Shown: piece after piece, positions 2,141 to 51,050 of the stretch | How positions within the stretch are numbered: the first letter of the stretch is position 1 | How the letters are laid out: each line of letters begins with the position of its first letter | Virus record (IMG/VR): IMGVR_UViG_3300009177_000036 | Location: 2,853-66,852 of that record | From: a virus | Strand: one strand, 5' to 3' | Length of the DNA: 64,000 bases | The notes under the pieces: model-generated | Seen by the model: the letters and a program-made list of their open reading frames with translations, nothing else | Told to the model about the DNA's origin: nothing | Databases searched by the model: none | Program-made: the position numbers and the translations under genes

Positions 2141-2956
2141 TTAGATGGCGTACATATGCTCCAGTTGGCGCATGGTGATGTAGCGGCTAAGGTATACATG
2201 TTTGTCGATAATGTCAAGCTCTGTTATGCCGTAGCTCCAGGCGTTCATACTGTGCTTGGCATAGTCCTCGACGTGGCCCTCCGGAAGCGCGCAGCTTAAG
2301 TCGATAACGGTGACCCGGTCGCCGCCGATCTTGGCCCGGTTGATGACTTGGAACTTGTGGTCGTGGCCGTGGACAACATCGACATTGGAATGGAGCGCGA
2401 TGGCCTGGGAGACGTTGGCCCCGCCGATAGGCTGGCCCATTGCAGACATAGGTACATGGGTGAAAAGCACCCCGTCCAGGTTGAGATACTCTTTGTAGGG
2501 GATGATGTTGCAGCCCTTGAAGAGATCGATGATCTGTGGTAGGAGTTGGTTCTTCATCGGCGGGTGGTCGTTCTCGTAGCGAGTGGCCCGGGCCCAATCA
2601 TGATTTCCCATGACGGCATGGATGTGGGGGATTTTGGGGCGCGCAAGGTGTAGTCGGCGGGCCTTGTCGATACGCTGTTTAAACGGCGAGAGGAGCCGGT
2701 GGGCGGTCGCTCTCCCATCAGACATGTCTTCCTCGAAGCTGGGCTTCAGCCTGCCCTTGAGGGTATCGTCCTTATCGTGGGAATTGAGGGAGTCCATAGT
2801 AAGGAAATCCCCGATGAACACCACATCATCGAAATCCCCTTGGGCGAGGTGCTGCCCGATCCAATCGTAACGGTCTTTCTGATATTCGGATTGGCGGGGG
2901 TCAGCGTGAAGGTCGCCAATTCCCAGAACTCGACGCGGGCGTCCGAGGGATGTCAT
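2141..2956 (-). CDS. Metallophosphoesterase (phage type)
   Basis: GDLH, GD, GNHD, FTH, HGHDH motifs. Confidence 0.85.
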   Translation of the reverse strand: MTSLGRPRRVLGIGDLHADPRQSEYQKDRYDWIGQHLAQGDFDDVVFIGDFLTMDSLNSHDKDDTLKGRLKPSFEEDMSDGRATAHRLLSPFKQRIDKARRLHLARPKIPHIHAVMGNHDWARATRYENDHPPMKNQLLPQIIDLFKGCNIIPYKEYLNLDGVLFTHVPMSAMGQPIGGANVSQAIALHSNVDVVHGHDHKFQVINRAKIGGDRVTVIDLSCALPEGHVEDYAKHSMNAWSYGITELDIIDKHVYLSRYITMRQLEHMYAI

Positions 2957-23080: not shown

Positions 23081-23554
23081 ATGACGGTCGTAGCCTTCCG
23101 GGACGGGGTGATGGCCTCGGATTCTGCAGTTACCACAGGGGATGAGTTCTTCTGCACCACACAAAAGCTGTTCCGGGCCAAGGATGGGTCGATCGCCGGG
23201 TTTACCGGAAACCTCAGCCAGATGGGAACGTTTAAACGCTGGTTCGAGGAGAGCTACCCAGAGGTCGAAGTGCCGAAGATGGGGGGCACCTGGGAGACCC
23301 TGATTGTCCACCCTGACCTTTCGATGTGGTGGACCAACGGGAAGGGCCTGCTCGTAGAGATCAAGGGCCAGAGTATGACCATCGGGTCCGGGGGGATGTG
23401 GGCCAAGGGCGCACTTGAAGCGGGGGCCACCCCAGCCCAGGCAGTCCAGGTAGCTATCGATTATAATACGGCGTGCCGGGGCCCCATACAGATAATGCAG
23501 CTAGAGCAGCCCAACCCCCGCCCCAAAAAGAAAAGAGCCCCGAAGGGCCCTTAA
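23081..23554 (+). CDS. HslV/proteasome-beta-like Ntn peptidase
   Basis: N-terminal MT, ASDS, KLF, IGSGG, AVQVAI motifs; AAGGAG RBS. Confidence 0.75.
   Translation: MTVVAFRDGVMASDSAVTTGDEFFCTTQKLFRAKDGSIAGFTGNLSQMGTFKRWFEESYPEVEVPKMGGTWETLIVHPDLSMWWTNGKGLLVEIKGQSMTIGSGGMWAKGALEAGATPAQAVQVAIDYNTACRGPIQIMQLEQPNPRPKKKRAPKGP
23525..23551 (-). terminator. Rho-independent terminator after the capsid gene
   Basis: Minus strand GCCC-TTCG-GGGC followed by TCTTTTCTTTTT. Confidence 0.75.
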
Positions 23555-34286: not shown

Positions 34287-35804
34287 TTAGCGGCCTGCGT
34301 AGAAGCGGCGGCGCGATTTTGGGGGCCTACGCCCCTGGGTCTCCCAGTCCCGGTCCACTGACCAGTCCTCGGGCTTGACGATTGAGGCGGTGTCCTGCAG
34401 GTATTTTAGGGCCATGATCACAGTATCAACGTAATCGTCGTGAGGTAGATTCGGAAATCCGCAGCATTCGAGACAAACTTCAATGTGACTCTCGATGTTG
34501 GGGTTGAACCAAACGAGGCCCGCGCTCATGATGGGAGTGACGGAGTGGGCCCGCGCCTCCTTGTCTGTCTTGCCCGGCTGGAAGGCCCGAACCGGCAGTC
34601 CGGTTCTGCGAAGGTCCTGGATGAGTGACTGGCCGCTGGCCTTGTCTTCCACGATGATCAGGGCCGGGTGCTCGCGGTAATAGAGTTCGATGGCCCGGGC
34701 CTTGAGGGTCGGGAAGTCCATGCGGGCCTTTTCCGCCTTGAGGAGGATGATTTGAGTCACCCCAGCGGGATTGTCCCACAGGCCCCAGGTGGTGCAGGCG
34801 CTGTAGTCGGCCCGCTCCTTTTCACTGAAAGCAGTGTCCCAGACCTGGATTTTGGTATGACAGGCCGGGGCCGTTTCATCTTGCCACTCCTGCCACCACG
34901 CCTCCTTTAGGATGTTGCCCCCGTCAGCGATCGGGCGCTGCATGTAGACCGATTCCCACTGGTAGGTTGGGAGGTTGTCCCGGGTCCGCTCCATTTCCTC
35001 CAAGGGCCACCACTCCGGCCAGAGGGCCGAGCCGATCGGGAGCCCTAGCCTATCTGCGATATCCTCGTAGCCCTCTTCCAGGATGGCCGGAAGTTCAAGG
35101 ACCTCCCACTGATCCGCCCCAGGATTTACAGCCGCTTCATGTAATAGCCACCCTGAGAGGTCGTCCTCAGCCCATCGGGTGTTAATGATGATGATGGCCC
35201 CGTTGGGCATTAGGCGGGTCCGGAGACCAGCGGGCCACCACCTCTGCAGTTCAGCTTTGCGGGCCTTCGAGAAAGCCTCCTGCTCCGAGATCGGGTCGTC
35301 GATGATGGCGATATGAGCCCCGCGCCCAGCAATTTTGGCCCCTGCGCCCCGGGCAATGTAGACGCCCCCAAGGGTGGTCTGGAAACGGCCCCGGGCCTTG
35401 GCATCCTGGTTGACGTAGACCTTTGGAAATATGTCATGGAATTCGGAAGTCTGCATGGCATCCCGAACATCTGCGCCAATGTCTTCGGCGTAGCCCGTCG
35501 AGTGCGAGATTTGAATTAGCTGAGAGCGGGGATGGTTGCCGTAGAACCAAGCTGGGAAGTGTCTGGAAACTAACTGAGATTTCCCGGTCCGAGGTGGGGC
35601 GAAGATCATCAGGCGCTTGATTCGGCCCTCGGCCACATCCTGTAGCTTCTGGCAAATGAGCTTATGGTGGCGGCCCATTTGATAGTCGGGCTGCATCATT
35701 TGAACGTATGTGGCGAAATCTTTCCGCGCTTGCGCATTCAGAGCAATTAGGAGTTGGCGCTCTAGGTCCTGGGAATTTAAAGTGGGGTCTAACTGGAATG
35801 TCAC
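34287..35804 (-). CDS. terL: Terminase large subunit
   Basis: PPRTGKS Walker A, IIDDP Walker B, WDTA, EDKASG, HDDYVD. Confidence 0.97.
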   Translation of the reverse strand: MTFQLDPTLNSQDLERQLLIALNAQARKDFATYVQMMQPDYQMGRHHKLICQKLQDVAEGRIKRLMIFAPPRTGKSQLVSRHFPAWFYGNHPRSQLIQISHSTGYAEDIGADVRDAMQTSEFHDIFPKVYVNQDAKARGRFQTTLGGVYIARGAGAKIAGRGAHIAIIDDPISEQEAFSKARKAELQRWWPAGLRTRLMPNGAIIIINTRWAEDDLSGWLLHEAAVNPGADQWEVLELPAILEEGYEDIADRLGLPIGSALWPEWWPLEEMERTRDNLPTYQWESVYMQRPIADGGNILKEAWWQEWQDETAPACHTKIQVWDTAFSEKERADYSACTTWGLWDNPAGVTQIILLKAEKARMDFPTLKARAIELYYREHPALIIVEDKASGQSLIQDLRRTGLPVRAFQPGKTDKEARAHSVTPIMSAGLVWFNPNIESHIEVCLECCGFPNLPHDDYVDTVIMALKYLQDTASIVKPEDWSVDRDWETQGRRPPKSRRRFYAGR

Positions 35805-36307
35805 TCCACTTCCCCGGGGCCGTCGATCTGCGCCTGCTCGACAACACGGAAGTCGCCCTCGACTATCCCCGCATTCTGGGCGATGCCCATGAGCCGGGCC
35901 AGATTACCCGAGGCCCCGTGTTCCACAGCCCCCTGAACATTAATGGTCTGGACCGAGCGGGTCTCAAACATCCCGACGTCCTTGCCCATAAGTTCGGCGG
36001 CCCGGATTGCTGCAGAGAACTGCCCATTGGCCATGGCGTTATCATAGGCCTCGACGAGCCGGGCCCGGACACTATCAGGTGTAATGCCTGACTTGTTTGC
36101 AACTTGTTGCCGCTTCTGCTGAATGTAGGCCTGGATCGCCGGGTTCTTAAAAAACTGGGAAGCCTGATTGACGGAGCTTTCCTTGTAGCCCGCCGCCCGC
36201 ATGGCCGCCGATTTATTGGACGGGTCCAGGATAAAGGCCTCGGCGGCCCGGATTTGCATGGGGGTCAGGTCCCCGTCGAGTTCCCTAAATAGATTAGGTG
36301 CTGTCAC
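35801..36307 (-). CDS. terS: Terminase small subunit
   Basis: N-terminal HTH (AAMRAAGY), AIRAAELMGK..GMF, adjacent to terL. Confidence 0.85.
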   Translation of the reverse strand: MTAPNLFRELDGDLTPMQIRAAEAFILDPSNKSAAMRAAGYKESSVNQASQFFKNPAIQAYIQQKRQQVANKSGITPDSVRARLVEAYDNAMANGQFSAAIRAAELMGKDVGMFETRSVQTINVQGAVEHGASGNLARLMGIAQNAGIVEGDFRVVEQAQIDGPGEVE

Positions 36308-36315
36308 TAGCGCTC

Positions 36316-37098
36316 CTAGGGGCCGCGCCCCTCAACCTGAATGAAACCGCGCGTGATCGGGGGTGGGTTGGTGCCCTCGAACGCGAAATGAACCGAGTCC
36401 CCTGAGTGTACCACAGACCAACCGTGTTCTGCAAATAATTCCACCAAGCTCCGTTTGGAGTAGAAAGTGATGTGTCCGCTCCGGGGGGCTATGTACCACC
36501 AGCTTGGGTGGAGCTTGCCCGGGACAGTGACAGTGGTGAACATCAGACAGGCTCCGGGGGCCGCAACATTTAGGATATCGGCAACAAGGTCCCGGGGATT
36601 GGGGTGATGCTCGAACACCTCGAAACAGGTGATGAAGTCATAGGGCGGTGAAATGCTGGGGGCCGTGTCCTGGTAGAAGGGGTCGCAGGTGGTCACGTTC
36701 TCCCAACCCATCTGCCCCATATACATCTCAAAATGCCCAGAGCCCCCGCCCCAATCTACAATTTTAGGGTCCATCTTAACCCCAGCGGCTCGGGTTTTCC
36801 AGAGGAGGTCGTGGGTGACGATGGCATTGTTCATAGCCCTTGAGCCCCCGAAGCCAGGGTCGAAGCGCCCATAGTCCGGGGTGTAGATTTGGGCCTTGAA
36901 TTCCTCCGGAGTCATACGCCACATAATTGGAGCCCATGCAAATTCACAATCCCAGCACTGCCAGTAGGTGACGCTCTGCCCCGTAAAGATGTCGGGCTCG
37001 TTGGTCCCCGCGTGGCTCATGTCCATGGAAATCCGGGGCACGGCGTCGCCCCTGCAGATTGGGCAGTGGAATTCAAAATCTTTCTGCGAAGCAGTCAT
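36316..37098 (-). CDS. Class I SAM-dependent methyltransferase (Methyltransf_23-like)
   Basis: VDWGGGSG, YDFITCFEVFEH, WWYIAPRSGHITFY; N-terminal CxxC/CxxC. Confidence 0.85.
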   Translation of the reverse strand: MTASQKDFEFHCPICRGDAVPRISMDMSHAGTNEPDIFTGQSVTYWQCWDCEFAWAPIMWRMTPEEFKAQIYTPDYGRFDPGFGGSRAMNNAIVTHDLLWKTRAAGVKMDPKIVDWGGGSGHFEMYMGQMGWENVTTCDPFYQDTAPSISPPYDFITCFEVFEHHPNPRDLVADILNVAAPGACLMFTTVTVPGKLHPSWWYIAPRSGHITFYSKRSLVELFAEHGWSVVHSGDSVHFAFEGTNPPPITRGFIQVEGRGP

Positions 37099-38591
37099 CG
37101 GCGAAGGTCCTTCTGTGTAATTTCATCTTCAGAGGTTAGCTCGACCCCAATCTCGGGGGCCCAGGTGATCTGGATGAGGCGCGCCCCATTGCTTCGAACT
37201 TTGTCTATGATGATACCCATCTTTCGGAGGGCGGGGGCGATCTTCATCAGGGTGGTAGTCATGGCCCGGGGGCCTGAGGGCCAAAAGGTTTCGCGGCCCC
37301 GCTCTTTCGGCTGGTAAATCCACAAGGCCTTAAGGAGTTCGGAGGAATGTCCCCGCCACTGCTTCTTGTCCTTCATGAAGTCATGGACACCCCGGGCCAC
37401 ATAGGAGTCGTCGAAGCTCTCCTCAAGGCTGCTGCTGTGCCCGTCCCGGACCGCCTGGATGATGGCATTCTTGGGCAGCCCCAGAGCCTCGCAGGCCGAG
37501 TTTGCCCACACCACCGGGTCCCGAAGAGGCAGCGGCTCGTTAAGTGGAGTCGACCCCCGGGCCCGGACCTTGAAGGCCTCGACCACCCCATCTAGAATTA
37601 TTGCCAATAGCGAGGGGTGTGCTTGGGCGAACTCTTCGTAAATGGAGAGCTTGTCTCGTTGCCCGGAGGTTACCGGAGGAATGTATATGTGGAACATCCG
37701 TCGCTTCAGATCATCCAGCTTGGCAAATTCAGGAATGCCATTTAAGATGACGGGCCGGACCGCAGAAAACCGGGCGCTCTCATTGTCTGAGTAAAGGCGG
37801 CGGCCCCCGAAAGTTCCTCCCGTCGAAAGGTTGCAGAGGGCGTTGGAAAGCCACTCCTCAATTCTGGAAAGGTTATCATAAGCTAGGACGAAACGGGTGG
37901 CAATATCAGACACCATGTCCCGGTCGTTCGAGGGCTTCGTCAAAAGGTCCAGGCCTCTCATGGGATCAAGCAGCCCCCGGATCACGTTTGTGTTGGTGGA
38001 CTTGCCGGAGTTCTGCTGCCCGTTCATTACCAAAATCGGGACTTCATATCCCATGAAACACCCCATAACCCAGGCGATTATGAGATAGAAATCTTCATTA
38101 CTAGATATATTGACAAACCGCTTCAAGTCTGTTATGTTATAATTACCCCCCGGGGGGATGGGGCGGGGCAGCGGGGCGGCGTTCGGGTTGCGGATAAACC
38201 GGACATCGAACGGACACTTAATGATGCGCCAGCCCTCAGCGTCGATCTCCACCACCTCACGCTCGGCGTTGTTCAGGTCCAGGTAGGCCACGTTGTTTCG
38301 ACGCAGAATTCGGACCGCCGCCTCCTTCTCCCCATTCTTCTCGGCCCGGTCCTCCAGCGCCTTGACAGCAAAGGACATAGCCTCAGGCTGAAGGATGATC
38401 GCAGTTTGGGACTGGAAGTGGCGGCGATACCATTCTCGAAAGGTCCCGCTCTTGATGGGGCGATGGTCCCATTGGCCGGGCACCTCGTCAGAGGGGATTG
38501 TAATGAAGTGGGTATTGCAGGGCCCCATCCAAGGCCGCATGGTTTCAATCTGGGCGTAGATGGCCTTAAGAGTTGTTTCCCGAATGGTCAT
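37095..38591 (-). CDS. P-loop ATPase, primase-associated/SF3-helicase-like
   Basis: GQQNSGKST Walker A, AYDN Walker B, RRLYSD, PVILNGI; no primase domain visible. Confidence 0.75.
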   Translation of the reverse strand: MTIRETTLKAIYAQIETMRPWMGPCNTHFITIPSDEVPGQWDHRPIKSGTFREWYRRHFQSQTAIILQPEAMSFAVKALEDRAEKNGEKEAAVRILRRNNVAYLDLNNAEREVVEIDAEGWRIIKCPFDVRFIRNPNAAPLPRPIPPGGNYNITDLKRFVNISSNEDFYLIIAWVMGCFMGYEVPILVMNGQQNSGKSTNTNVIRGLLDPMRGLDLLTKPSNDRDMVSDIATRFVLAYDNLSRIEEWLSNALCNLSTGGTFGGRRLYSDNESARFSAVRPVILNGIPEFAKLDDLKRRMFHIYIPPVTSGQRDKLSIYEEFAQAHPSLLAIILDGVVEAFKVRARGSTPLNEPLPLRDPVVWANSACEALGLPKNAIIQAVRDGHSSSLEESFDDSYVARGVHDFMKDKKQWRGHSSELLKALWIYQPKERGRETFWPSGPRAMTTTLMKIAPALRKMGIIIDKVRSNGARLIQITWAPEIGVELTSEDEITQKDLRR

Positions 38592-38764
38592 TAAAGGACC
38601 GCCACAATGTTATCATCATTAATGTAAGCACGTACACTATGGCTATCGTTTTTCGAAAACCAAAGCTGAAGGTACTCAGGATTCCCGGAGCGCGTGATGT
38701 ATCGGACTTGGGAAAGGTTGATTAGGCAGGGCTCGTCGTCGAAGGACCGGAAGAAAGTTAACAT
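38591..38764 (-). CDS. Small hypothetical protein (57 aa)
   Basis: AAGGAG RBS; stop overlaps the ATPase start. Confidence 0.55.
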   Translation of the reverse strand: MLTFFRSFDDEPCLINLSQVRYITRSGNPEYLQLWFSKNDSHSVRAYINDDNIVAVL

Positions 38765-38795
38765 GGAAAGCGCGCTCCTTGGTTAAGACCCCTGG

Positions 38796-38824
38796 AAGCT
38801 AACACAGGTCATAAGGGTTGTCAA
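38796..38824 (-). promoter_or_regulatory. Sigma70 promoter TTGACA-17-TAGCTT
   Basis: Head of the leftward operon. Confidence 0.7.
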
Positions 38825-39008
38825 GTGATGCGTGCTCCCTTCTTCTATTTATTTTTTCTCTAGTATAAAGTAAGATAGTTATGGCATGTGACCCTATTGC
38901 CTCTTTTGTTATTATTTTCAAGGAGATAAGCAGTGACACATGCTGTGACAACAGGGGCACAACTTATGACCCTGCGGCCCCGCCGCTCCCACACCCCTTA
39001 CATCCTGC

Positions 39009-39037
39009 TTGACATCGGGGCCCCTGAATGTTAGATT
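39009..39037 (+). promoter_or_regulatory. Sigma70 promoter TTGACA-17-TAGATT
   Basis: Consensus with TGn. Confidence 0.7.
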
Positions 39038-39228
39038 GTGGCATCTTTTGTATAGGAGGGATCGATTATGAAGCTATGGGCTTGGTCGCTGATTTTGGCA
39101 GGGGCGTTCGATATTGGGGTCTTCTTTTGGGGGCTGTGGTCCCAGGACCTCGGATTCTTGCAGGCCCTGACGTTACCGGTTGGGGTTTTTGCTGTGAGTC
39201 AGGGGGCCATTGAATTGGAGCGGAGTCA

Positions 39229-39639
39229 ATGATTGTCTTGGTTGATATAGATGGGACGTTGACTCGGGACTTTCAGTGGGGTATGACCTGGGATGACGTA
39301 GACACCCAGACCCCCAATATACCGGTGATTTCTGTAGTTCAGGGCCTCGCTATGCAGGGCCATATTATTGTGGTGATGAGCTTTCGGCCCGAGTTCACGA
39401 GGCGCGCGACCGTGGCATGGCTCGATAAGTGGCATGTTCCATTCAAAAATCTTTTGCTCCGCAGGGATGATGATCGAAGGTCAGCGCCGGAGGTTAAGCG
39501 GGAGATGGTTCAAAAAGTGAAAGATATGGGGCTGGGCCACGAGGTGTCCTTGGCGCTTGAAGATGATCCGAGGAATGCTGAGATGTTTAGGGATGAGGGG
39601 ATTCAGACGATGATGGTCCTCCAGCCTGCGACAATTTGA
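39229..39639 (+). CDS. HAD-family (PNKP-type) phosphatase
   Basis: DIDGTL, RP, R..DD.R.APEVK, EDD. Confidence 0.85.
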   Translation: MIVLVDIDGTLTRDFQWGMTWDDVDTQTPNIPVISVVQGLAMQGHIIVVMSFRPEFTRRATVAWLDKWHVPFKNLLLRRDDDRRSAPEVKREMVQKVKDMGLGHEVSLALEDDPRNAEMFRDEGIQTMMVLQPATI

Positions 39640-39983
39640 CACAGGGGTGTGAAATGGATGCGTTTACGGGTGGTAAGTTCGCGGGCTGGTTCGAGGCCCT
39701 AGATTATATTGAAGGCTATCTTGATGAGCATGGATTGATGGTTGATATATTTAATTTAGTGAAACAAATGAGGAGCGCGGGGCCCGCGTCAGCGGGCATT
39801 TTAGCTGCAGGTTCTTCCGCGTCAGCGGCGACCGATACTCCCCCGCAAGGGGCGTCTGCGAAGCAGTTGGAGAAGGCGGTGTTAGATTATCCATATGGGT
39901 TGGATGCTAGTGCCTTTGAGCCTGGGACGGATATGTGGGATTTGGCCATTCAGGTCAATTGGAAGTTGGGTCTGGGGAAATAG
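39636..39983 (+). CDS. Hypothetical protein
   Basis: ORF; start may be ATG 39654. Confidence 0.5.
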   Translation: MTQGCEMDAFTGGKFAGWFEALDYIEGYLDEHGLMVDIFNLVKQMRSAGPASAGILAAGSSASAATDTPPQGASAKQLEKAVLDYPYGLDASAFEPGTDMWDLAIQVNWKLGLGK

Positions 39984-40691
39984 CTATGGCCCTGATGTAT
40001 GTTTTCTTCTGTGCGTTAGCACTGGTGTGGTGGATTATTGGGGGGCCCCGGGGCCCGGATGGGTTTGTATGATGATGGGAACTTTCTTTGAGCTTAGCTC
40101 GGGCGAAGCCCGTTGGGCTGTTATTAGTTTAGCTAAGCCATTCTAAAATTTTTATTTTTTGTGCTATTGGTCTCTCGTGTAGCGAAAATTTTGTACGAAC
40201 TACCCCCCTAAAGAATAAAATCACCCTGGAGTCCCTTTTGGGGGACCCCCTCTTTAAAAGAACCTTCCCCCTTGGGTCCTCGGGCCGCTGGGCTCACGCC
40301 CGGAGGATTAGGGCCGCGCCGATGGCTGCGATGAAGGCGAGGTAGGCGCAGCAGGCTGCGAAGTCCCGGGCCGTGAGGGTGAGGGCGTGGCCCCGGTGCG
40401 TGAGGCTTAGGCCCTCGGTCGTCAGGGTTGCCTTAGTGCGGTACAGCGTGGGGTAGGCGTTCCGGTAGGTCATGGGGCGGCTCCAAGTGTTTAAACGATT
40501 GCTATTGCCCATGGTAGGCTCGCTTCGCTCGGGCTGACCAGTGCAGTTATTGCATGGCTGCTTTGCATTCTTTGCACTTGTGCGGGATGTTTAAACGGTG
40601 GCACATTGGGCAGGTCAGCGCCAAGCGAAACAACTTGGGCCGAGCCGGGGACTGCGATAGTGTCCCCACCCCTTATGGGCGGAGTCCACTT

Positions 40692-40910
40692 ATGTGCGAA
40701 GCACGACCGGTGGCTTATGTGATTGTCGATAGACGGACTGGGCGGCAGGTGGGCAAGCCTTATAGCTATGAGCAGCGCAATCGGTGCCGGGCCCGGGTTG
40801 ATAGATTGGATTTGGAGTACGGTGCGTACCGGTATTCTGCCCAGCCAGTCTACGAGAGCCCTAACTTGAACAACGTTCAATCCAACACCCCCGGCTCCAC
40901 CAATCTGTGA
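40692..40910 (+). CDS. Early hypothetical protein
   Basis: GGAG RBS; R.RARVDRLDLEYGAYRY pattern. Confidence 0.55.
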   Translation: MCEARPVAYVIVDRRTGRQVGKPYSYEQRNRCRARVDRLDLEYGAYRYSAQPVYESPNLNNVQSNTPGSTNL

Positions 40911-40998
40911 AAAATCACACATATAACCATTCGGTTATATAAAGAAACCTTTATATCGCCACAATCCGCCCCTTCGGGGGACTAAGAGAGGATCAATC

Positions 40999-41277
40999 AT
41001 GACCTACTATGCCTCCGACTTCGGGTATCGCCCCGCCTCCGCATGCATCGATTGCGGTTCGTTTGAAATGCCATGTTGCTATCGCGGGTCGACCGATGCT
41101 CATGTGGCCTACCACCACGCCCACGTTAAGGACCTGGAGATTATCGACATACTCCACACCCATTGTGCTTACTTCAAGGGCGGGCGTACATGGGCTCACA
41201 CTCGTGCCACCATAGGCCTGCCCTTCGACATCGTCGAAGACATTTGGACCGACATGGCCATTGGATATACTGGCTGA
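40999..41277 (+). CDS. Early hypothetical protein
   Basis: GAGG RBS. Confidence 0.55.
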   Translation: MTYYASDFGYRPASACIDCGSFEMPCCYRGSTDAHVAYHHAHVKDLEIIDILHTHCAYFKGGRTWAHTRATIGLPFDIVEDIWTDMAIGYTG

Positions 41278-41388
41278 CGCCAGCCCCGCTTCGCGGGCAT
41301 AGCTGACCTGCAGTAAATGCATTAGGGCTGGGCTGCCATAGCTGGTAGTCTGGCCCTAGTCGTTTAAACGCCCCAACGGAGACCAATC

Positions 41389-41703
41389 ATGGCTTATCAG
41401 ACTAAATATGGTGCGTACATTTCCCTGGGCTCTGTGTCATGGGGAACCTTGCGTTCTGAGGATTTGCTTCGTAGTTTCCTTGCCGAACTGGATCGCGTGC
41501 GGCCTTTTAACGAGCGATCCCTTCGGTTCGACATCAAAGAATACCTCGAAGGCCAGCGTTTGGAAGATGAATATGCGGCGGAATTGGTTGAGCGTGCCTT
41601 TGATTCGCTTAACAACGTCGCCCCTCCCGGTATGTACTTTGGAGCCCATGAGGGGGACGGCTCAGACTTCGGATGGTGGGAAATGTCAGGAGACGATCAA
41701 TGA
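41389..41703 (+). CDS. Early hypothetical protein
   Basis: GSVSWGTLRSEDLL...YFGAHEGDGSDFGWW, a recurrent phage early-protein pattern. Confidence 0.75.
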   Translation: MAYQTKYGAYISLGSVSWGTLRSEDLLRSFLAELDRVRPFNERSLRFDIKEYLEGQRLEDEYAAELVERAFDSLNNVAPPGMYFGAHEGDGSDFGWWEMSGDDQ

Positions 41704-42332
41704 TCGATCAACCCGAACCGTATGCGACCCGTGAGCAATGGCTTGAAGCCGCCGTATTTGAAATGCGGCCACTCTACCTTGCGGCGGGTCAGCCTGTCCC
41801 CGTTGCCCTAAAGGTGTCGTGCGGCTTTGCTCAAGGCAAGAAAAAGGCCATTGGCCAGTGTTGGAGCGACGCAAACTCCGAGGGTCATGTCTTCGAGCTT
41901 TTCATATCGCCGGTCTTGTCGGACCACACTGAAGTCCTAGCTACTCTAGCCCACGAAGTGGCGCATGCTTGCGTCGGTGTTGACGTTGGCCACAAGAAGC
42001 CGTTTAAACAACTTGTGACCAAGATCGGGCTTGAAGGCAAGGTCACTGCGACAGTGGCGGGCCCGGCGTTTAAACAGTCAATCGGCCCGATCCTCGAAAA
42101 GCTTGGGCCCTATCCTCATGCACGTTTAAACACTGAGACGGCGAAGGGAGGTTCCAAGAAGCAAACCACACGCCTACTCAAGGCCGAATGCCCGCTCTGT
42201 GGATACACTGTCCGCGTGACCAAGAAATGGGTGGATGAAGTCGGCGCGCCCCACTGCCCGGCCCATGGTGCTATGGACATTGACGGACTGCCAGGGGCAG
42301 AAGAACCGGACGATGAGACCATAGACGAATGA
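41700..42332 (+). CDS. SprT-like zinc metalloprotease with C-terminal Zn ribbon
   Basis: LAHEVAH HExxH, GH..PF, CxxC...CxxH. Confidence 0.8.
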   Translation: MIDQPEPYATREQWLEAAVFEMRPLYLAAGQPVPVALKVSCGFAQGKKKAIGQCWSDANSEGHVFELFISPVLSDHTEVLATLAHEVAHACVGVDVGHKKPFKQLVTKIGLEGKVTATVAGPAFKQSIGPILEKLGPYPHARLNTETAKGGSKKQTTRLLKAECPLCGYTVRVTKKWVDEVGAPHCPAHGAMDIDGLPGAEEPDDETIDE

Positions 42333-42353
42333 ACCTTGGACTATATCACAACT

Positions 42354-42379
42354 AGAGGGGCTTCGGCCCCTTTCTTTTT
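42354..42379 (+). terminator. Rho-independent terminator
   Basis: GGGGC-TTCG-GCCCC plus TTTCTTTTT. Confidence 0.85.
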
Positions 42380-42460
42380 GCATACCAGATATGCATTAAT
42401 TGCACAAGACATTTCCCGACCTATGGTGCATCGTTTCTTTGCAACAGGAGTACAGGCATC

Positions 42461-42628
42461 ATGACCAAAAAAGACTTCCAACTTATTGCCAATGCCATCA
42501 ACAGTCTCTCGCTTCCCATTGACACTAAGGAGACGGTGGCTAAAACCTTCGCCGCCTACCTGCGGACCACAAACCCTCGCTTCGATCAGTTCCGCTTTAT
42601 CGAAGCCTGTATCGGTTCCCCCAAATGA
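42461..42628 (+). CDS. Early hypothetical protein (55 aa)
   Basis: AGGAG RBS; MTKKDFQLIA...NPRFD..RF..AC. Confidence 0.7.
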   Translation: MTKKDFQLIANAINSLSLPIDTKETVAKTFAAYLRTTNPRFDQFRFIEACIGSPK

Positions 42629-42927
42629 CCCCGAAACATACCCCCGGACCTTGGAAGGTTCGCAAATATGCCGGAGGCAAACGGGCCGAAGTGGTTGGTG
42701 CACCTATGCGGGATGATTTGTGGTCTCCCTTGGTTGCCCAAATGAGTTTTCATCCTGACGCTCGCGAAGAGGCAATCGCCAACGCTCACATAATTGCCGC
42801 TGCACTTGATATACTGGAAGCGCTAGAAGGCGTAAACCGGTTCAACCAAGGTAAGTCGGATATGCCTTGGGAACTTCATCAAGAACAGATTGACGCAGCA
42901 ATTGCCAAAGTCCGGGGGCAATCATGA
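42625..42927 (+). CDS. Early hypothetical protein
   Basis: HTPGPW...ANAHIIAAA pattern. Confidence 0.75.
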   Translation: MTPKHTPGPWKVRKYAGGKRAEVVGAPMRDDLWSPLVAQMSFHPDAREEAIANAHIIAAALDILEALEGVNRFNQGKSDMPWELHQEQIDAAIAKVRGQS

Positions 42928-43079
42928 CCGACCGGCCTAAGGTTGACCCTCGCGACCCTGACCCGACCCGGGAAGGTATCTTCCAGTACCACAATTGCTG
43001 GCGATGCGACGACGGCAAGAAGGCTTGCCCCCTGGGGTCTCCCTCCCGTTGTGACTATCCACGAGCAAGGAACGATTAG
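42924..43079 (+). CDS. Small Cys-rich protein
   Basis: HNCWRC...C...C, coupled start and stop. Confidence 0.5.
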   Translation: MTDRPKVDPRDPDPTREGIFQYHNCWRCDDGKKACPLGSPSRCDYPRARND

Positions 43080-43082
43080 GCC

Positions 43083-43262
43083 ATGAGTATCTATAAAGAG
43101 CAATTCCAGTATGAGTGGGACGCCATCTATGATGACGCCATCGACCGGGGCTTAACGGAGGGGCAGGCGTCTGCTATAGCAGATACCCTCGCTTTGGGCC
43201 GTTTAAACAATAGGTTAGCGGACATGGCAGATATGTTGCGCGACCGTGCAAAAGAGGCTTGA
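43083..43262 (+). CDS. Small acidic protein (59 aa)
   Basis: Tightly packed ORF. Confidence 0.5.
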   Translation: MSIYKEQFQYEWDAIYDDAIDRGLTEGQASAIADTLALGRLNNRLADMADMLRDRAKEA

Positions 43263-43263
43263 C

Positions 43264-43446
43264 ATGAACCGGGGATTGTTTACGATAACAGTTCAACGTG
43301 TCGACGGTACTTCATCGGAAGTTCAGGCCATGGATCGAAATGCAGCGTTTAAACGCTTCGAGCAGGCCCGGGGTCTTGTGGATGCCCTAAGGGTTCAACT
43401 TCGTGAGGGGCAACAGCTTATTGCCTCGGACAATCTGGGAGACTGA
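43264..43446 (+). CDS. Hypothetical protein
   Basis: GAGG RBS. Confidence 0.5.
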   Translation: MNRGLFTITVQRVDGTSSEVQAMDRNAAFKRFEQARGLVDALRVQLREGQQLIASDNLGD

Positions 43447-43447
43447 C

Positions 43448-44902
43448 ATGCCCAACAATGACGATGATTTTTTTGAACTGCTGTCCTACACCTCTCCGGG
43501 AGTTTCGATTTCGACAATGTCACCTCGGTGGATGTTGGTGGATGGCCCCACCCTTCTCCGGCCCGAAAGTGAATTCCGGCGTTTCGTTAACTGGGCTAAA
43601 GGACTGCGGAACAATCGGTTTTCTCATACTAATCTTTGGTTTTTCGAGCAGTTGAAGGAATTCTCGAAAGGCGACTTTGCCCGCGCCACGCGCTTTGTCT
43701 ATTGGCTCAACCGTGAGCAGATTGCGGAATGCGTCGAGTGCGGTACGTGGCTACCCGACCGTTTCGTTGAATTCGGGACCGGGATGCCGACCCTTGGAGT
43801 TTGCCCTTCCTGTGCTTCGGACTATGAGTGGTCAGAGCGGGCCCAGAGCTTCATTCACTCAAATGACTGGGATGAGGACCTCCACGCAAATCGGCCCTCT
43901 CCAATTCATGATTATAGTTATAATGTTCTCGACATGTACAACGAATTCATTGCGGCCCCCGGGGAGCGGTGGAACGAAGAAACAATGTTCATGGGCATTG
44001 AGCTTGAGGTTGAGCGCCCTTCTGAATTCAATGTCGAAAACGAGATCGGCCTCGACAATCTCCTGGGGGAAAACAAGTTCGGTATTCTGAAGTACGATGG
44101 TTCGCTGGACAATGGTTTCGAGCTTGTCACTGTCCCCGCGACCTTCGCCTACCACACCGGCCCCGCCAGCCCCTGGCCAGAGCTTCTTAAGCATATGCGC
44201 GACCAAGGCTTGCGGTCCTTCGATACCACAACCTGCGGCTTGCACGTACACGTCTCCAAAGCGGCGATTTCCCACCTAACACAGGGGAAACTTGTAGAAT
44301 TCGTCAATTCGCAGCACAACCGGGCTTTCATCCAATCCATCGCCCAACGTCGTCTTGAAGGTGGCCATAGTTACGCGCCCCTCAAGGAAGAACATGATCT
44401 GATGTGGGGTTGGAGGCACCGCGACGATATTGTTGTTCGGAAGACTTCAAGGCCCGAGCTTACGTGTGACTGCGACGCCTGCCGGTCTGAGCATAGGGAT
44501 AGGCTGCGCCGCTACGAAGCGATTATGGCCGAGCTTCAACCCTCGAATGTTCGGAAGGTCCGGTCAAAGAAACTCTATACTTTCGACTGGGACCATGACG
44601 AGCGGTATTCCTCTATCAATCTCACTAATGCCGAGACGGTGGAGTTTCGTATTTTCAAGGGTACCCTTTCCCAAAATGGGCTTTACAGGTATCTCGAATT
44701 CGTGCACTCTATCCTCTCCTATCTGCCCCAGGTGGGGATCACGGAACTCGGCCACGAAGATTTTTGCAAATGGGTTGCCCGCAAGGGTCGGAAGTCCTAC
44801 CCCCATTTGCTACGGTGGATGCAGGTAAAGGGCCACCTCCCGGCTCCGCGCCACATACCCCCGGACCGCGTCACTCTCGAAAGGAACCAACTATGTGCTT
44901 GA
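43448..44902 (+). CDS. Putative amidoligase (COOH-NH2 ligase family)
   Basis: GIELEVE, DGSL..GFELV, CGLHVHVS, RY..INL, TVEFRIFKGT. Confidence 0.85.
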   Translation: MPNNDDDFFELLSYTSPGVSISTMSPRWMLVDGPTLLRPESEFRRFVNWAKGLRNNRFSHTNLWFFEQLKEFSKGDFARATRFVYWLNREQIAECVECGTWLPDRFVEFGTGMPTLGVCPSCASDYEWSERAQSFIHSNDWDEDLHANRPSPIHDYSYNVLDMYNEFIAAPGERWNEETMFMGIELEVERPSEFNVENEIGLDNLLGENKFGILKYDGSLDNGFELVTVPATFAYHTGPASPWPELLKHMRDQGLRSFDTTTCGLHVHVSKAAISHLTQGKLVEFVNSQHNRAFIQSIAQRRLEGGHSYAPLKEEHDLMWGWRHRDDIVVRKTSRPELTCDCDACRSEHRDRLRRYEAIMAELQPSNVRKVRSKKLYTFDWDHDERYSSINLTNAETVEFRIFKGTLSQNGLYRYLEFVHSILSYLPQVGITELGHEDFCKWVARKGRKSYPHLLRWMQVKGHLPAPRHIPPDRVTLERNQLCA

Positions 44903-45798
44903 TCGTTATCAAAGAGCCCGGCATTGAAATCCCCCCGGAAGACATATACAACTCCTACTCCCATAACCCTGACGGGTGGGGCCTCATGTGGGCTAAGGAA
45001 GGGAAGCTTCGGACCCTTAAGGGGCTGGGGCACATCCAACATGCCATGAGCTACCTCGACGGGCTGAAGGACGAAAAGGTCTATTTCCATATGCGCTTCG
45101 CCACCCAAGGTGGGGTCAATCTGGAAAACGCCCACCCTTACCCGGTGCTGAATTTTGCCGACCATGGGGTCGACCTGCACATGATGCATAACGGGGTCCT
45201 CTCCAACGATCTGGACTTCATCGATGACCGGTCAGACACTTGGCACCTCGCGGCGATCCTGACCACTTGCTTTGCGAAGAACCAAGGTGAGCCCCTTTTC
45301 GACCGGGACTTCCAAGAATACCTGGGCAACGCGGTCCGGGGCTCCAAGCTCGTCTTCCTGTTCGGCGATGGCCGGGAGGTTATCATTAACGAACAGGACG
45401 GCTGGCGCTGCAAGAAAACCAACCTGTGGTATTCCAACACCTATAGCCTTATGCCCTATCGGGACTACACGGAGAAAAAAGGCGACTGGGTCGTCGAGGG
45501 GGGCTGCTACGTCTTCAAGCCCAATAGTTCCAGCCTGAAGGTCCCGGCCCTGGGGGCCCCCGCCGATGAGCATCGGGACTTCTTTGCGGACCTTGATAAC
45601 CGGCTCAACACCGAACAGGCTTACGAAGAGGTTTTCGGGGAACTGGGCGAAGATCACTACGGGGGGCCGTATGTCGATCTCGTGGACAAGCTGGGCGACC
45701 TCTACATGGCCGACATTGAAAGCCTCGTGGCCAACAATCCCCAAGAGGCCGTGGAAATGCTGATGCAGGCCCGCGCCAAGCTCTGGGGCCCTCTCTAA
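44893..45798 (+). CDS. Class II glutamine amidotransferase
   Basis: MC N-terminus, NPDGWG, HMRFATQG, NAHPY, MHNG, SDT. Confidence 0.9.
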   Translation: MCLIVIKEPGIEIPPEDIYNSYSHNPDGWGLMWAKEGKLRTLKGLGHIQHAMSYLDGLKDEKVYFHMRFATQGGVNLENAHPYPVLNFADHGVDLHMMHNGVLSNDLDFIDDRSDTWHLAAILTTCFAKNQGEPLFDRDFQEYLGNAVRGSKLVFLFGDGREVIINEQDGWRCKKTNLWYSNTYSLMPYRDYTEKKGDWVVEGGCYVFKPNSSSLKVPALGAPADEHRDFFADLDNRLNTEQAYEEVFGELGEDHYGGPYVDLVDKLGDLYMADIESLVANNPQEAVEMLMQARAKLWGPL

Positions 45799-46842: not shown

Positions 46843-48888
46843 ATGCAAATCAATACGGCCCGTCGGGAGGTTTCGTCCTCCGCCGACCTTCAACAGAATG
46901 ACTTCAGCATATCGATGGGGCCGGGGATGTTCAAAATCCTCACCTCGTCCATCTACTCTGATGTGCAGCGCATCGCCATGCAGGAGCCTATCTGCAACGC
47001 CATCGATGCCAACACTGCGGCGGACCGGCCCCTGGAGCCTGTGAAGGTCCACCTTCCCAATCGGCTGGAGCCGTTTTTCTCCGTCGAGGACGCGGGCCTG
47101 GGTATGTCCCATGACTTTGTGATGACCAATTACAACCGTTACGGGCACTCCACAAAGGCCGAGGACAACCAATCCATCGGGGGTTTCGGGCTGGGGTCTA
47201 AGGCCCCGCTCGCCTATACCGACACTTTCGAAGTCCATACCCGGCAGGCCGGGGAGGAACGCAAGTACGTAGCCTATATCGGGCAGGACGGCACCCCCTC
47301 AATCGCCCTTGTCTTCACTGGGCCTTGGGCCGGGGCCTCGGGGACTCTGGTCAAATTTCCTGTGAAAGGGGCCGACGTACAGAGCTTCCGGGAAAAGGCG
47401 GCGCGGAATTTCGCTTTCCTCACCCCTCAACCGGCATGGCCCCAGGGTTTCACAATTGAACAGCCGAAATATGTACTTAAGGGAAGTAACTGGGCTTTCC
47501 GTGAACGCTATTACCCAATGCCCGACAGGGCAGCCCACATTATCATGGGTGGCATCGCTTATCCCGTGAATGCGGAGAGCCTTGACAGTTCTGTCAAGAG
47601 GTTGGCCGCATTTCCTATACACATTACTGTACCTGTGGGGACCGTTGAGCCCTCAGTGTCCCGAAGTGAGCTTAACTATAATAAAGAAACTGTAGAAAAG
47701 CTTACCCAAATCTTTAAGCAAGTTCAGGCCGAGATTATCCAGAATATTGAGGCGGAAATTACCAAGTGCCCCACTTTGTGGCAGGCAATCGAAGCCTACA
47801 ATAAATTCTACACTAGTATGGGCTACGCTTGGTTTAGTGGCCAGAATGTTAAATGGAAGGGCCTTAACTGCATTGAGGGTATCATAGTAGAATTGAATAA
47901 ATTTCCGGGAGTCGATTTCGCCACCTATAGTAAGAGCTATTCCGGGTCGGGCATCGGCAAGATAGCCCCCTGGAAGTCAAGCTACTCAATGTGCCCCACC
48001 TATACCTACAGTCCTCGGGAGGGGGAGCGGACTATCTTTGTTTATGACGACCGGACCCACAAAAACCCGACCCGCGCCCTTCACGAACTTCTGGGCAAAC
48101 AGTCCTTTCGGCAGGTTTTCATTATGCGGGGTGGCTCCCTTGATGACCGGGCTCGTTTCATCGAAGCTCTGGGTAACCCCCCTGAAGTTATTGACCTGGG
48201 TTCCCTCCCGGCCATTGTTCGGGCTAAGCCTCAGAAAGTGCTGACCACAACCTTAACGTGTACTGTCTACAAAAACGGCACTAAACTACGGAATCAGATT
48301 GTAAATCTTTCTGAGGGCGGCGTCTACTTCATCGAGAGTCGAGGTACCATCACCGGATGGTATTCCTATGGCATTTTTCTAACCCAAGCAGCAAGCAATT
48401 CCTACTACTTTCCGGGTCCAGTCTATATCTTTCCGGCCTCGGCCCGGCGCAAATTAGCTAAGGCGGCGGGTTGGGTTACCGGGGAGACCTTCCTCCAGGA
48501 GCGCCATGAAAAGGCCACAATTGAAGAGGGTTTCGATTATGCAAAGGCCACCGTTGCCCAGAACACTTGTACTTGGATTGCTGAGACCCTTCATCTTGAG
48601 GGCCTGTACACTGAATGGCTGAAGGACCGCCTTTCGATATCCCGGGAATTTAATCAGCTAATGAAGTTAGTGGAGCAAAACCGCCCTGACTTTGAGACCC
48701 TAGAACATCGGCGCGTCGCTGAAATGCTGGGGCAGGCTACGGATGTAGAGTATGTCAGGGCAGGAAAAATCGAAGAGATTTGGCAGAAATTGCTTGACAA
48801 ACTCCCTTTGCTGCCGTACATTTCTCATAACACTCCCTCAGAACGCATTTTCAATTACGTAACGTCAACACTCCGCAGGAGAACCTAA
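46843..48888 (+). CDS. rIIA: rIIA-like protein (GHKL ATPase N-terminus)
   Basis: IYSD, E..CNA.DA, D.GLGM, STK, IGGFGLGSK. Confidence 0.9.
   Translation: MQINTARREVSSSADLQQNDFSISMGPGMFKILTSSIYSDVQRIAMQEPICNAIDANTAADRPLEPVKVHLPNRLEPFFSVEDAGLGMSHDFVMTNYNRYGHSTKAEDNQSIGGFGLGSKAPLAYTDTFEVHTRQAGEERKYVAYIGQDGTPSIALVFTGPWAGASGTLVKFPVKGADVQSFREKAARNFAFLTPQPAWPQGFTIEQPKYVLKGSNWAFRERYYPMPDRAAHIIMGGIAYPVNAESLDSSVKRLAAFPIHITVPVGTVEPSVSRSELNYNKETVEKLTQIFKQVQAEIIQNIEAEITKCPTLWQAIEAYNKFYTSMGYAWFSGQNVKWKGLNCIEGIIVELNKFPGVDFATYSKSYSGSGIGKIAPWKSSYSMCPTYTYSPREGERTIFVYDDRTHKNPTRALHELLGKQSFRQVFIMRGGSLDDRARFIEALGNPPEVIDLGSLPAIVRAKPQKVLTTTLTCTVYKNGTKLRNQIVNLSEGGVYFIESRGTITGWYSYGIFLTQAASNSYYFPGPVYIFPASARRKLAKAAGWVTGETFLQERHEKATIEEGFDYAKATVAQNTCTWIAETLHLEGLYTEWLKDRLSISREFNQLMKLVEQNRPDFETLEHRRVAEMLGQATDVEYVRAGKIEEIWQKLLDKLPLLPYISHNTPSERIFNYVTSTLRRRT
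48794..48822 (+). promoter_or_regulatory. Internal sigma70 promoter for rIIB, TTGACA-17-TACATT
   Basis: Inside the 3' end of rIIA. Confidence 0.6.
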
Positions 48889-49707
48889 ATGACCGGCATT
48901 CCCCCACACATCTACACCCCCACCTCCCTAACTGTTGTTATCGACGGCGTCCCCTACACCAGCAACGAGGGCCAATCCACCTTCAAAGCAGCGGTCGATG
49001 CGTTTAAACAGGGCCACTACTCCGACATTCCGGGCCTATGTGATGTCGCCTCGGCCATCACTCAATTCGCAGGCCACGCGGGCATCTTGGTCCAGGACGG
49101 CGAAGTCTCTTACTGGGGAGAGGTCCTGTCGGGTTATGCTATCGACCGTATCCTGGCCCTTCAGGCCGAGGGTTTCGATATTGCCCCCATGGCTAAGTTC
49201 CTTGAGAACCTGATGGAGAACCCCTCGAAGCGGGCGGTCGACCATCTGTGGGCTTTCATGGAAAAGGGCTCGATGCCGATTACCTCCGACGGGTACTTCT
49301 TGGCCTACAAGCGGGTCCAGGAAGACTATAAGGATATACATTCGGGCACTGTAGATTATACCCCCGGGAACATTGTCGAGCAGGCCCGGAATACCGTCGA
49401 CGAGGACCCGGACCGCACCTGTAGCCATGGCCTGCATGCCTGCTCTCTCGATTATCTGCAGCACTTCGGCGGGGCCCGCACCGTCATTGTTAAGATCAAC
49501 CCCCGGGACGTTGTGGCCATCCCCCGAGACTACAATGATGCCAAGCTCCGGGCCTGCCTAATGGAAGTTGTGGGCGAGATCGAAAACACAACTAATGGCA
49601 CCAAGGCCTTCCACCACAGTGTCCAGGACTGGGGGCGTGATGAGTTTGGTTATTCGGAAGGAGCCTTTTACGAGGAGAATGGTTATTACGATTATGACTT
49701 TGACTAA
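48889..49707 (+). CDS. rIIB: rIIB-like protein
   Basis: NPS, IT.DG.FLAYK, CSHGLH, VKINPRDVVAIP.DY...K.R.C. Confidence 0.92.
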   Translation: MTGIPPHIYTPTSLTVVIDGVPYTSNEGQSTFKAAVDAFKQGHYSDIPGLCDVASAITQFAGHAGILVQDGEVSYWGEVLSGYAIDRILALQAEGFDIAPMAKFLENLMENPSKRAVDHLWAFMEKGSMPITSDGYFLAYKRVQEDYKDIHSGTVDYTPGNIVEQARNTVDEDPDRTCSHGLHACSLDYLQHFGGARTVIVKINPRDVVAIPRDYNDAKLRACLMEVVGEIENTTNGTKAFHHSVQDWGRDEFGYSEGAFYEENGYYDYDFD

Positions 49708-50826: not shown

Positions 50827-51050
50827 CTTTTGTAGGTAGGCAATATGCAGCGAATGTCTTAACACGTGCAGCGCGATTGATCATTGTTGAAGTTGCTTCC
50901 CTACGTAGTTCGGCGAAAGTATACAGAGAGCGCGGCGACCCAAGTTCGTATTGGGACGATATCGAGTGCGCCCTGATTAAGTTGGAAGATGCTGAAGATG
51001 GGATGCAAAAGCTAATTAATAATGTGTGGAATGAAAATCATGACCATTAG
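50823..51050 (+). CDS. Hypothetical protein
   Basis: Coupled ORF. Confidence 0.5.
   Translation: MTFVGRQYAANVLTRAARLIIVEVASLRSSAKVYRERGDPSSYWDDIECALIKLEDAEDGMQKLINNVWNENHDH

Follow-up and report, generated by a model that had tools for sequence, protein, structure and literature searches.

An array of the palindrome YGTTTAAACR around a gene for a SprT-like protein, its candidate reader, in a soil virus and in other phages

Arrays of sites for a phage DNA-binding protein are a known kind of element. The stoperators of Cluster A mycobacteriophages, which serve an L5 gp71-type repressor, are many exact copies of one word within transcription units, often at gene borders, and stop transcription. 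They are 13-14 bases long, asymmetric, orientation-dependent and spread genome-wide, and their reader is a helix-turn-helix (HTH) immunity repressor that acts in lysogeny. In ParB-parS systems, several 16-base parS palindromes lie within a few kilobases and the dimeric reader is encoded nearby. HIP1 (GCGATCGC) of cyanobacteria is an 8-base palindrome found chromosome-wide in cells, with no agreed reader, and the protease Spartan (human SPRTN) recognises DNA structure rather than sequence and is not known to have a site array. Here, we analyzed a window of 64,000 nucleotides, the whole stretch under study, which covers bases 2853-66852 of the linear, 66,852-base soil-virus record IMGVR_UViG_3300009177_000036 (CheckV completeness 74%). 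In this window, the palindrome GTTTAAAC, extended by its flanks to YGTTTAAACR, is packed around a gene for a SprT-like protein. The word is real, under selection, conserved, and co-occurs with the C-terminal module of the SprT-like protein in otherwise unrelated phages. It is almost certainly a selected protein site, and the module is probably its reader.

Like stoperators, the words occur as many exact copies within transcription units and are kept by selection, both in the window and in relatives. Unlike stoperators, the word of the window is a perfect 8-10-base palindrome that lies mostly in the early arm and saturates the positions at which it can be encoded, whereas a variant word carried by actinophage relatives is asymmetric yet present in both orientations (14 and 7 copies). 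The putative reader is of SprT type, with a cysteine module, and no HTH domain was found in the open reading frames (ORFs) of the cluster. Because two defining features of stoperators, asymmetric orientation and an HTH reader, are missing, the array does not qualify as a stoperator system. A scan of 45 window ORFs against Pfam or PHROGs found no integrase. Clustered palindromic sites with a putative dimeric reader encoded nearby recall ParB-parS, and the same scan of 45 ORFs returned neither ParB nor ParA. Like HIP1, the word is an exact 8-base palindrome that exceeds expectation by far and occurs in coding DNA in all usable frames; unlike HIP1, it is regional, viral and tied to one gene.

The likeness to Spartan lies in the fold, a protease part with a zinc subdomain, in the HExxH motif and in DNA as the putative partner; unlike Spartan, some array-linked homologues lack HExxH or consist of the C-terminal module alone, and the Pfam score of the window protein falls below the cut-off. 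The core of the word is the recognition sequence of PmeI, GTTT^AAAC. Unlike a PmeI target, the word is enriched rather than avoided, is extended to 10 bases by its Y/R flanks, and comes with no cognate enzyme that we could see. The first-pass annotation of this stretch, made from the sequence alone, knew of no described system that explains the word, and the literature that we searched, supplementary files aside, likewise holds no phage array of GTTTAAAC or of its variant GTGTAAAC. In a preprint on Cluster AZ Arthrobacter phages (10.1101/2025.05.26.655371), a homologue is described as a conserved SprT-like DNA-binding protein upstream of the integrase and is suspected of a role in lysogeny control, and unspecified repeats are mentioned as 'data not shown'.

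GTTTAAAC occurs 11 times in the window, at 2677, 23230, 40489, 40589, 41362, 42002, 42068, 42124, 43201, 43347 and 49002, and a twelfth copy is found neither there nor in the whole 66,852-base record. The eleven positions initially read by eye are each exact and their list is complete. Eight of them are packed into 40489-43354, within a region (40.5-43.5 kb) that, from the gene layout, would be 'early'. In 100 dinucleotide shuffles of the window, the expected count was 0.46 on average and 3 at most, an enrichment of about 24-fold, where the first-pass annotation had roughly expected less than one copy per 64 kb; Markov models of order 1-4 predicted 0.44-0.55 copies. Moreover, GTTTAAAC tops the over-representation ranking among all 6-, 8- and 10-base palindromes of the record. 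The flanks are T..G in three copies, C..G in three and C..A in five, so that all 11 read YGTTTAAACR, and T..A flanks, that is, TGTTTAAACA, occur in none, exactly as first described. Since none of the 12 one-mismatch variants of the window lies within 40-44 kb, the word is kept exact. The sites, and the features among which the clustered ones lie, are as follows.

40488..40497, site 1, TGTTTAAACG: non-coding, 15 bases 5' of the start of a minus-strand gene for a 59-amino-acid protein (40297-40473), before its GGAG
40588..40597, site 2, TGTTTAAACG: in the intergenic region between the diverging genes, 100 bases from site 1; the first plus-strand early gene (40692) starts about 95 bases further on
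41361..41370, site 3, CGTTTAAACG: non-coding, 20 bases 5' of the ATG at 41389, adjoining its GGAG
42001..42010, site 4, CGTTTAAACA: in the SprT-like gene, as P-F-K-Q within the GH..F motif typical of the family
42067..42076, site 5, CGTTTAAACA: in the SprT-like gene, encoding A-F-K-Q; the relatives' residues differ
42123..42132, site 6, CGTTTAAACA: in the SprT-like gene, encoding R-L-N with the rare codon TTA; the relatives' residues differ
43200..43209, site 7, CGTTTAAACA: in a 59-amino-acid ORF (43083-43262), encoding R-L-N with the rare codon TTA
43346..43355, site 8, CGTTTAAACG: in a 60-amino-acid ORF (43264-43446), encoding A-F-K-R
2676..2685, outlying site: in a minus-strand ORF (2141-2956), encoding P-F-K-Q
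23229..23238, outlying site: in a plus-strand ORF (23081-23554), encoding T-F-K-R
49001..49010, outlying site: in a rIIB-like gene (48889-49707), encoding A-F-K-Q
41700..42332, plus strand: SprT-like gene, 210 amino acids, with HEVAH; fourth gene of the first plus-strand unit and candidate source of the binder
42153..42269, plus strand: C-terminal cysteine module, about residues 152-190, KKQTTRLLK..CPLCGY.VR...KW....G.P.CP; putative DNA-reading part
40474..40691: divergent non-coding control region between the minus-strand 59-amino-acid gene and the first plus-strand early gene, with sites 1 and 2 and presumed promoters
42354..42373, plus strand: terminator-like hairpin of 8 pairs followed by a T run, 22 bases past the SprT-like stop, closing the first early unit

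Three clustered sites are non-coding and five are coding in two frames, in agreement with the first-pass annotation, which had argued from such placement that selection acts at the level of DNA. Within a gene, GTTTAAAC can be encoded only as xxG-TTT-AAA-Cxx, as xGT-TTA-AAC or, at a gene end, as GTT-TAA. Peptide positions that permit the word are filled in 5 of 6 cases in the ten genes of 40294-43446 and in 3 of 28 in the other 81 listed genes. Under a codon-preserving null of synonymous shuffles within genes, the early genes carried a mean of 0.35 and at most 3 copies, and none of 2000 shuffles reached the 5 that are observed; for the rest of the window, 3 coding copies stand against an expected 0.28, and 1 of 300 shuffles reached 3. 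In both R-L-N copies the leucine codon is TTA, whose share of leucine codons is 3.9%. Of the three copies that lie in the SprT-like gene, two are at positions where the residues of relatives differ, and it seems from this alignment that the protein sequence has been bent to accommodate the sites. At site 4, two relatives (L007 and L017) have an aligned FKQ, with one site apiece within their SprT-like gene. The counts of codable positions, the synonymous shuffles and the conservation of sites among relatives (below) all agree that selection acts on the DNA.

A search of viral contigs with the SprT-like protein yielded 15 loci with 31-51% identity and 36-67% guanine-cytosine (GC) content. The word exceeded expectation in 13 of them, which span 36-60% GC, with observed against expected copies of, for instance, 25 and 0.68, 20 and 0.36, 10 and 0.74, 5 and 0.16, and 4 and 0.18; L012 holds 3 copies in 4.1 kb at 60% GC, and L005 holds 2. 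The first-pass annotation had asked whether the motif clusters by position in relatives, and it does, beside the SprT-like gene: a 37.7-kb record holds 20 of its 24 copies within 10.6 kb, and a 54.7-kb record holds 7 of its 11 within the final 6 kb. When all window ORFs were compared by tblastn with these loci and two isolates, the SprT-like stretch was the only one common to all. A few structural genes of the window were matched in 3-6 loci each, and the early genes that separate the sites are unrelated between phages. Of the cultured phages, Methylophilales phage Venkman (34% GC) carries 34 copies where 1.71 are expected, and 19 of these fall in its first 7 kb alongside the SprT-like gene; Dinoroseobacter phage R26L (63% GC) has 11 against 0.01 in the 40.5 kb searched, and Pseudomonas phage Persinger has 4.

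No copy of GTTTAAAC was found in two of the 15 loci, L015 and L019, or in 40.5 kb of Bordetella phage CN1, which carries a SprT-like gene. The C-terminal module of L019 is degenerate; those of L015 and CN1 are ordinary. A separate word, CTCCTGAA, occurs 14 times in L019 against 1.84 expected, mostly in one orientation, and may be another word array or a coding bias. For L015, CCACGACC was considered as an alternative word and rejected as a six-base tandem repeat inside one gene. Two blocks of CCACGA/CCGCGA/CCCCGA variants in one gene (5229-5740) explain the top-ranked 8-mers of this locus, whose GC content is 67%. CN1 also carries a deoxyuridylate hydroxymethyltransferase-type gene and may have modified thymines; a link to the missing array would be speculation.

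The association was also examined in reverse, with loci drawn by the word alone (three copies 40-70 bases apart; at least 119 loci) and, as a control, by CAAATTTG, a word of matched composition for which the complete scan gave 52 loci. The SprT-like profile matched 52 of the at least 119 word-drawn partial loci when ORFs of at least 60 amino acids were considered, and 53 with ORFs of at least 45 amino acids, compared with none of the 52 control-word loci. Among the word-drawn loci listed, matches were found in 47 of 87 with at least ten sites and in 6 of 32 with fewer. The whole records could be searched for 39 of the 40 listed dense loci that had no match, and 12 of these carry the protein elsewhere. 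Among the matches listed, every record longer than 15 kb carries the protein, except one of 23.5 kb and one 440-kb giant-virus record with tandem repeats, and so do 4 of the 5 records that are at least 90% complete.

We pooled the arrays of 92 loci with at least ten sites, for a total of 1395 distinct sites. T precedes the word in 52% of the pooled sites and C in 32%, and the Y/R flanks are thus general. The 1187 pooled gaps show no periodicity at 3, 10, 10.5 or 11 bases; a peak of gaps at 50-75 bases is an artefact of how the loci were drawn. The TAA stop of an ORF of at least 45 codons is supplied by 313 of the 1395 sites, and in 53 of these cases a start codon comes exactly 8 bases later. 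Between related loci, sites remain intact more often than other 8-mers, at 72% versus 9.5% for pairs of 65-70% identity, 88% versus 32% at 80-85% and 97% versus 81% at 95-97%, although the pairs overlap in ancestry and their counts are not independent. Array density in relatives reaches one site per 300-400 bases. The SprT-like gene lies within the array, usually at its head: in the 20 loci that extend for 2 kb or more to either side of it, sites number 2.75 per kb downstream of the gene start and 0.95 per kb upstream. The downstream side is the denser one in 18 of the 20, and the two exceptions are low-GC, Venkman-like loci in which the gene closes the array. In isolates, arrays are not confined to one genome end.

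Arthrobacter phage Crewmate and Microbacterium phage Percival carry the SprT-like gene, with 0 and 2 copies of GTTTAAAC, respectively. Their top over-represented 8-mer is the one-letter variant GTGTAAAC, present 21 times in Crewmate (0.08 expected) and 14 times in Percival (0.03 expected), with the consensus CGTGTAAACG. The Crewmate copies are spread between 3 and 43 kb, 14 in one orientation and 7 in the other. Several variant sites directly follow TAnnnT hexamers, 30-45 bases before gene starts, including that of the SprT-like gene. The modules of the variant and the GTTTAAAC type differ as well, with KKQGTR in place of KKQ(T/S)TR and CAEGSGY in place of CxxCGY. In this comparison of two groups, the differences fit a reader whose specificity has shifted. 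Separately, at 35187, 35911, 40839 and 41370 of Crewmate (L021), just 5' of four genes, GTTTACAC stands in the longer context TA..CT-GTTTACAC-GA.GCA.GA.CA, which looks, by its sequence, like a promoter-operator unit.

The SprT-like protein of the window matches phrog_6361 (E 7.9e-51, residues 9-192) and, under the curated cut-off of 25.6, the Pfam SprT-like family (PF10263; E 7.3e-5, 23.0 bits). The HExxH zinc-binding motif of the SprT family is present as HEVAH. The same motif is absent from three full-length homologues (L024, L027 and L070), which lie in arrays of 25, 31 and 16 sites. In an AlphaFold model built on a 19-sequence alignment (predicted local distance difference test score, pLDDT, 87; predicted template modelling score, pTM, 0.69), an alpha/beta protease part is followed by a small C-terminal beta-hairpin part. 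The best solved folds are those of the Spartan SprT domain (6mdw, E 6.5e-4; 6mdx, E 1.3e-3; 196-199 aligned columns), and an archaeal metallopeptidase comes next (4jiu, E 0.034). Template modelling (TM) scores against 6mdw and 6mdx are low, at 0.29-0.34, with a root-mean-square deviation of 12 A, which suggests that the modelled domain arrangement is unlike that of Spartan. The homodimer prediction score was 0.80 (0.80, 0.81 and 0.80 in the individual runs), compared with 0.00 for the best of three controls. That mark is reached by 20 of 30 proteins whose solved structures are homodimers and by 1 of 23 solved as monomers, counts that apply here only roughly because the alignment was our own. 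The runs agree in at least 88% of contacts, the partner pLDDT is at least 79 and the pairing is symmetric. Together, these predictions support a homodimer, the interface of which would comprise residues 9-16, 38-48, 55-74 and 140-147, outside the C-terminal module.

The invariant or near-invariant columns of the family alignment (Y138, P139, H140, Q155, T157, R158, C164, P184 and C186) lie mostly in the C-terminal half. Among the matches listed, 12 word-drawn loci and 5 further records contain no full SprT-like protein and instead carry a free-standing module, 53-57 amino acids long in the ten loci for which a start was called. It aligns to profile positions of about 137-179, with KKQ-x-TR-x-x-K, a cysteine, Y-x-x-R and G-x-P-x-CP-x-C. 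Because both the free-standing modules and the homologues without HExxH keep their arrays, the C-terminal module appears to be the common denominator of the array phages. It matches phrog_34373 and the C-terminus of phrog_6361, both families of unassigned function, and no Pfam family above the cut-off. A Pfam scan of the small ORFs of the cluster found no further DNA-binding domain and no HTH. The family is large, with 4273 clusters at 50% identity for E up to 0.001 and 1708 at 1e-30, and 164 of the 50,697 phage genomes on deposit encode a member.

Taking these observations together, we suggest that the SprT-like protein docks on YGTTTAAACR as a dimer, the word being read by the zinc-ribbon-like C-terminal cysteine module. 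The first-pass annotation had listed sites for a dimeric protein among its proposals, and this remains the best reading because the word is palindromic and its candidate binder is predicted to be a homodimer; the SprT-like protein itself, cited there merely as an example of coding copies, is the likely binder. The gene is surrounded by its own array, with two sites in the upstream control region, one before the preceding gene, three within the gene and two in the next unit. As the protein accumulates, it would fill the sites and reduce or stop transcription of the early unit or units, both at the promoters and by way of in-gene roadblocks, forming a stoperator-like array of autoregulated operators and roadblocks. 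Binding of the module to the word as a dimer is the firmer part of this proposal, and transcriptional control as its outcome the weaker one. For control of the early operon, we put the chances somewhat below even, and the complete chain, from docking of the dimer to operon control, is offered just as tentatively.

Several observations weigh against this proposal. Only 3 of the 8 clustered sites are non-coding, and a palindromic site lacks orientation, unlike true stoperators. The predicted dimer interface (N-terminal domain and residues 140-147) is absent from the free-standing modules, and the zinc subdomain of Spartan binds single-stranded DNA without sequence preference. The module is missing from 27 of the 86 searchable listed loci with at least ten sites; 25 of these 27 are records shorter than 14 kb, which leaves G031 (23.5 kb, 61% complete) and the 440-kb giant-virus record. 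Conversely, the gene occurs without an array in L015, with its canonical module, and in 40.5 kb of CN1, and is therefore not sufficient for one. In the Venkman-type loci L037 and L102, the gene stands at the tail of the array, and in Crewmate and R26L the sites are genome-wide, which simple early shut-off would not predict.

The SprT fold itself raises the question of whether the sites park a metalloprotease on early DNA, where it would cleave a host protein bound to that DNA, for example a silencer, a stalled complex or an enzyme of restriction or another defence, as counter-defence or clearing. HEVAH is kept in the window protein, the nearest fold is that of the DNA-dependent protease Spartan (6mdw and 6mdx), the array sits among genes of host-takeover type (rIIA/rIIB and RNA repair), and depositors have labelled the CN1 homologue 'antirestriction protein', an annotation without experimental test. 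However, the three homologues without HExxH and the free-standing modules still pair with dense arrays, and since protease-less forms retain arrays, proteolysis is not the shared function; we regard a DNA-tethered protease as unlikely. A broader version, to which we give the same low standing, is a portable two-part system of a so far undescribed kind, in which a zinc module, usually fused to a Spartan-type protease, would park the protease on early DNA and clear host proteins from it. The word would be written at every codable early position, protease-less versions would act by occupancy, and as specificity changed one letter at a time (GTTTAAAC to GTGTAAAC), the whole array would follow. Less probable again is that the word is read by something else, be it another protein of the phage or a factor of the host, and that the SprT-like gene merely travels in the early cassette. 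Co-occurrence is indeed not binding, the gene is found without an array (L015 and CN1), and one 23.5-kb array record lacks the module. Yet no other window gene is common to the array phages, whose hosts belong to different phyla (Methylophilales and Dinoroseobacter, and, with the variant word, Arthrobacter and Microbacterium), none of the 52 control-word loci carried the protein, and the cluster contains no other Pfam DNA-binding domain.

The first-pass annotation had the cluster start just after a putative genome end, in which case the sites could serve a co-injected protector, a translocase or a pause in injection. In many phages the early arm enters the cell first, and the array covers the early arm in most loci. 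The supposed end, however, found no support: 40150-40290 bears no end marks and is internal to the contig, no end repeats are recorded for the linear virus record, and short assembled Logan contigs from three further rhizosphere runs bridge the stretch (39946-40230, 40194-40362 and 40212-40485). In addition, variant sites span 3-43 kb in end-defined actinophage genomes, and we consider a function on first-injected DNA very unlikely. Slightly less credible still are recombination sites or cassette boundaries, at which a site-specific nuclease would cut the word and help to shuffle small early genes. The 313 sites that serve as stop codons, 53 with a start 8 bases on, and the unrelated genes between sites from phage to phage are what such cassette boundaries might leave, but 1082 of the 1395 sites lie away from gene ends, none of the sites in the window is a stop codon, the word is not accompanied by any nuclease, and sites stay in place between relatives rather than mark breakpoints. 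Least probable by a clear distance is a PmeI-type target kept as a decoy or methylation site. The core is the PmeI target, and an S-adenosylmethionine (SAM) methyltransferase domain is encoded at 36319-37098; against this, the word is shared across hosts of different phyla, its clustering in one arm is left unexplained, the domain belongs to a general family (Methyltransf_23) rather than to DNA methylases, and phages normally lose restriction targets rather than gain them. A host nucleoid protein and a restriction decoy, both among the initial suggestions, are unlikely because the word follows one phage gene across host phyla. CtrA sites were also rejected, their motif (TTAA-N7-TTAA) being unlike single exact GTTTAAAC words.

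The genome around the cluster is divided by strand. From position 1 to about 38.6 kb, genes lie on the minus strand and include those for the portal, a virion protein, the large terminase (34290-35804) and the small terminase (35804-36307). Next to the small terminase gene, upstream of it, is a class I SAM methyltransferase of general family (36319-37098, minus strand; Methyltransf_23, E 1.1e-24), not recognised as a DNA methylase. The adjacent 498-amino-acid ORF (37098-38591, minus strand) was considered as a terminase and rejected, the terminase being encoded at 34290-35804; it matched no PHROG or Pfam family, and its sole deposited relative is a 'DNA helicase/primase' of Microbacterium phage Zeta1847 (24.5% identity). 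From 40692, four small genes follow on the plus strand, the last being the SprT-like gene at 41700-42332, and then the hairpin. Beyond it, also on the plus strand, are five small ORFs, an amidoligase and a class II glutamine amidotransferase, rIIA and rIIB and, past these, a polynucleotide kinase-phosphatase, an RNA ligase, an exonuclease, a Sak4-like annealing protein and a DNA polymerase. The amidoligase (Amidoligase_2, E 2.9e-9) and the GATase_4-like protein (E 8.2e-5, below the cut-off) are encoded at 43448-45795, right after the site cluster, with an overlap of about 10 bases, and may be a small-molecule- or peptide-modifying pair. The rIIA-like (phrog_612, E 2.3e-93) and rIIB-like (phrog_609, E 5.4e-67) genes occupy 46843-49704. 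A stand-alone PNKP-type HAD phosphatase near the cluster (39229-39636) and the full kinase-phosphatase with a Rnl1-type RNA ligase (51022-53409) make up an RNA-repair set.

Megablast of 40000-44000 against deposited phages gave no match. A scan of 38500-44000 for the sigma-70 consensus found 7 sites against 4.3 expected, none of them in the divergent region. TTGCAT/TTGCAC boxes recur at 40540-40585 and 42385-42435, in the non-coding stretches ahead of early units; the box at 42404, with TATGGT 16 bases later, resembles the class TTGCNN-N18-TANNNT. We attach no weight to the promoter boxes TGGTCA-18-TACCAT and TTGCAC-16-TATGGT, which were read by eye. The stretch at 40140-40290, between convergent genes, is AT-rich and non-coding, with T runs and a C-rich tract.

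The proposal lends itself to experiment, since the family has cultured members, namely Venkman, R26L and the Cluster AZ Arthrobacter and Cluster EH-type Microbacterium phages. If it is correct, a large, uncharacterised phage family would gain a concrete role as a sequence-specific DNA reader, and the word array would provide a simple genomic mark for the early or controlled arm of uncultured phages. Selection would be writing sites into coding DNA despite rare codons and altered residues, and the two forms of the word would represent a natural case of protein-site co-evolution in which specificity changes by one letter.

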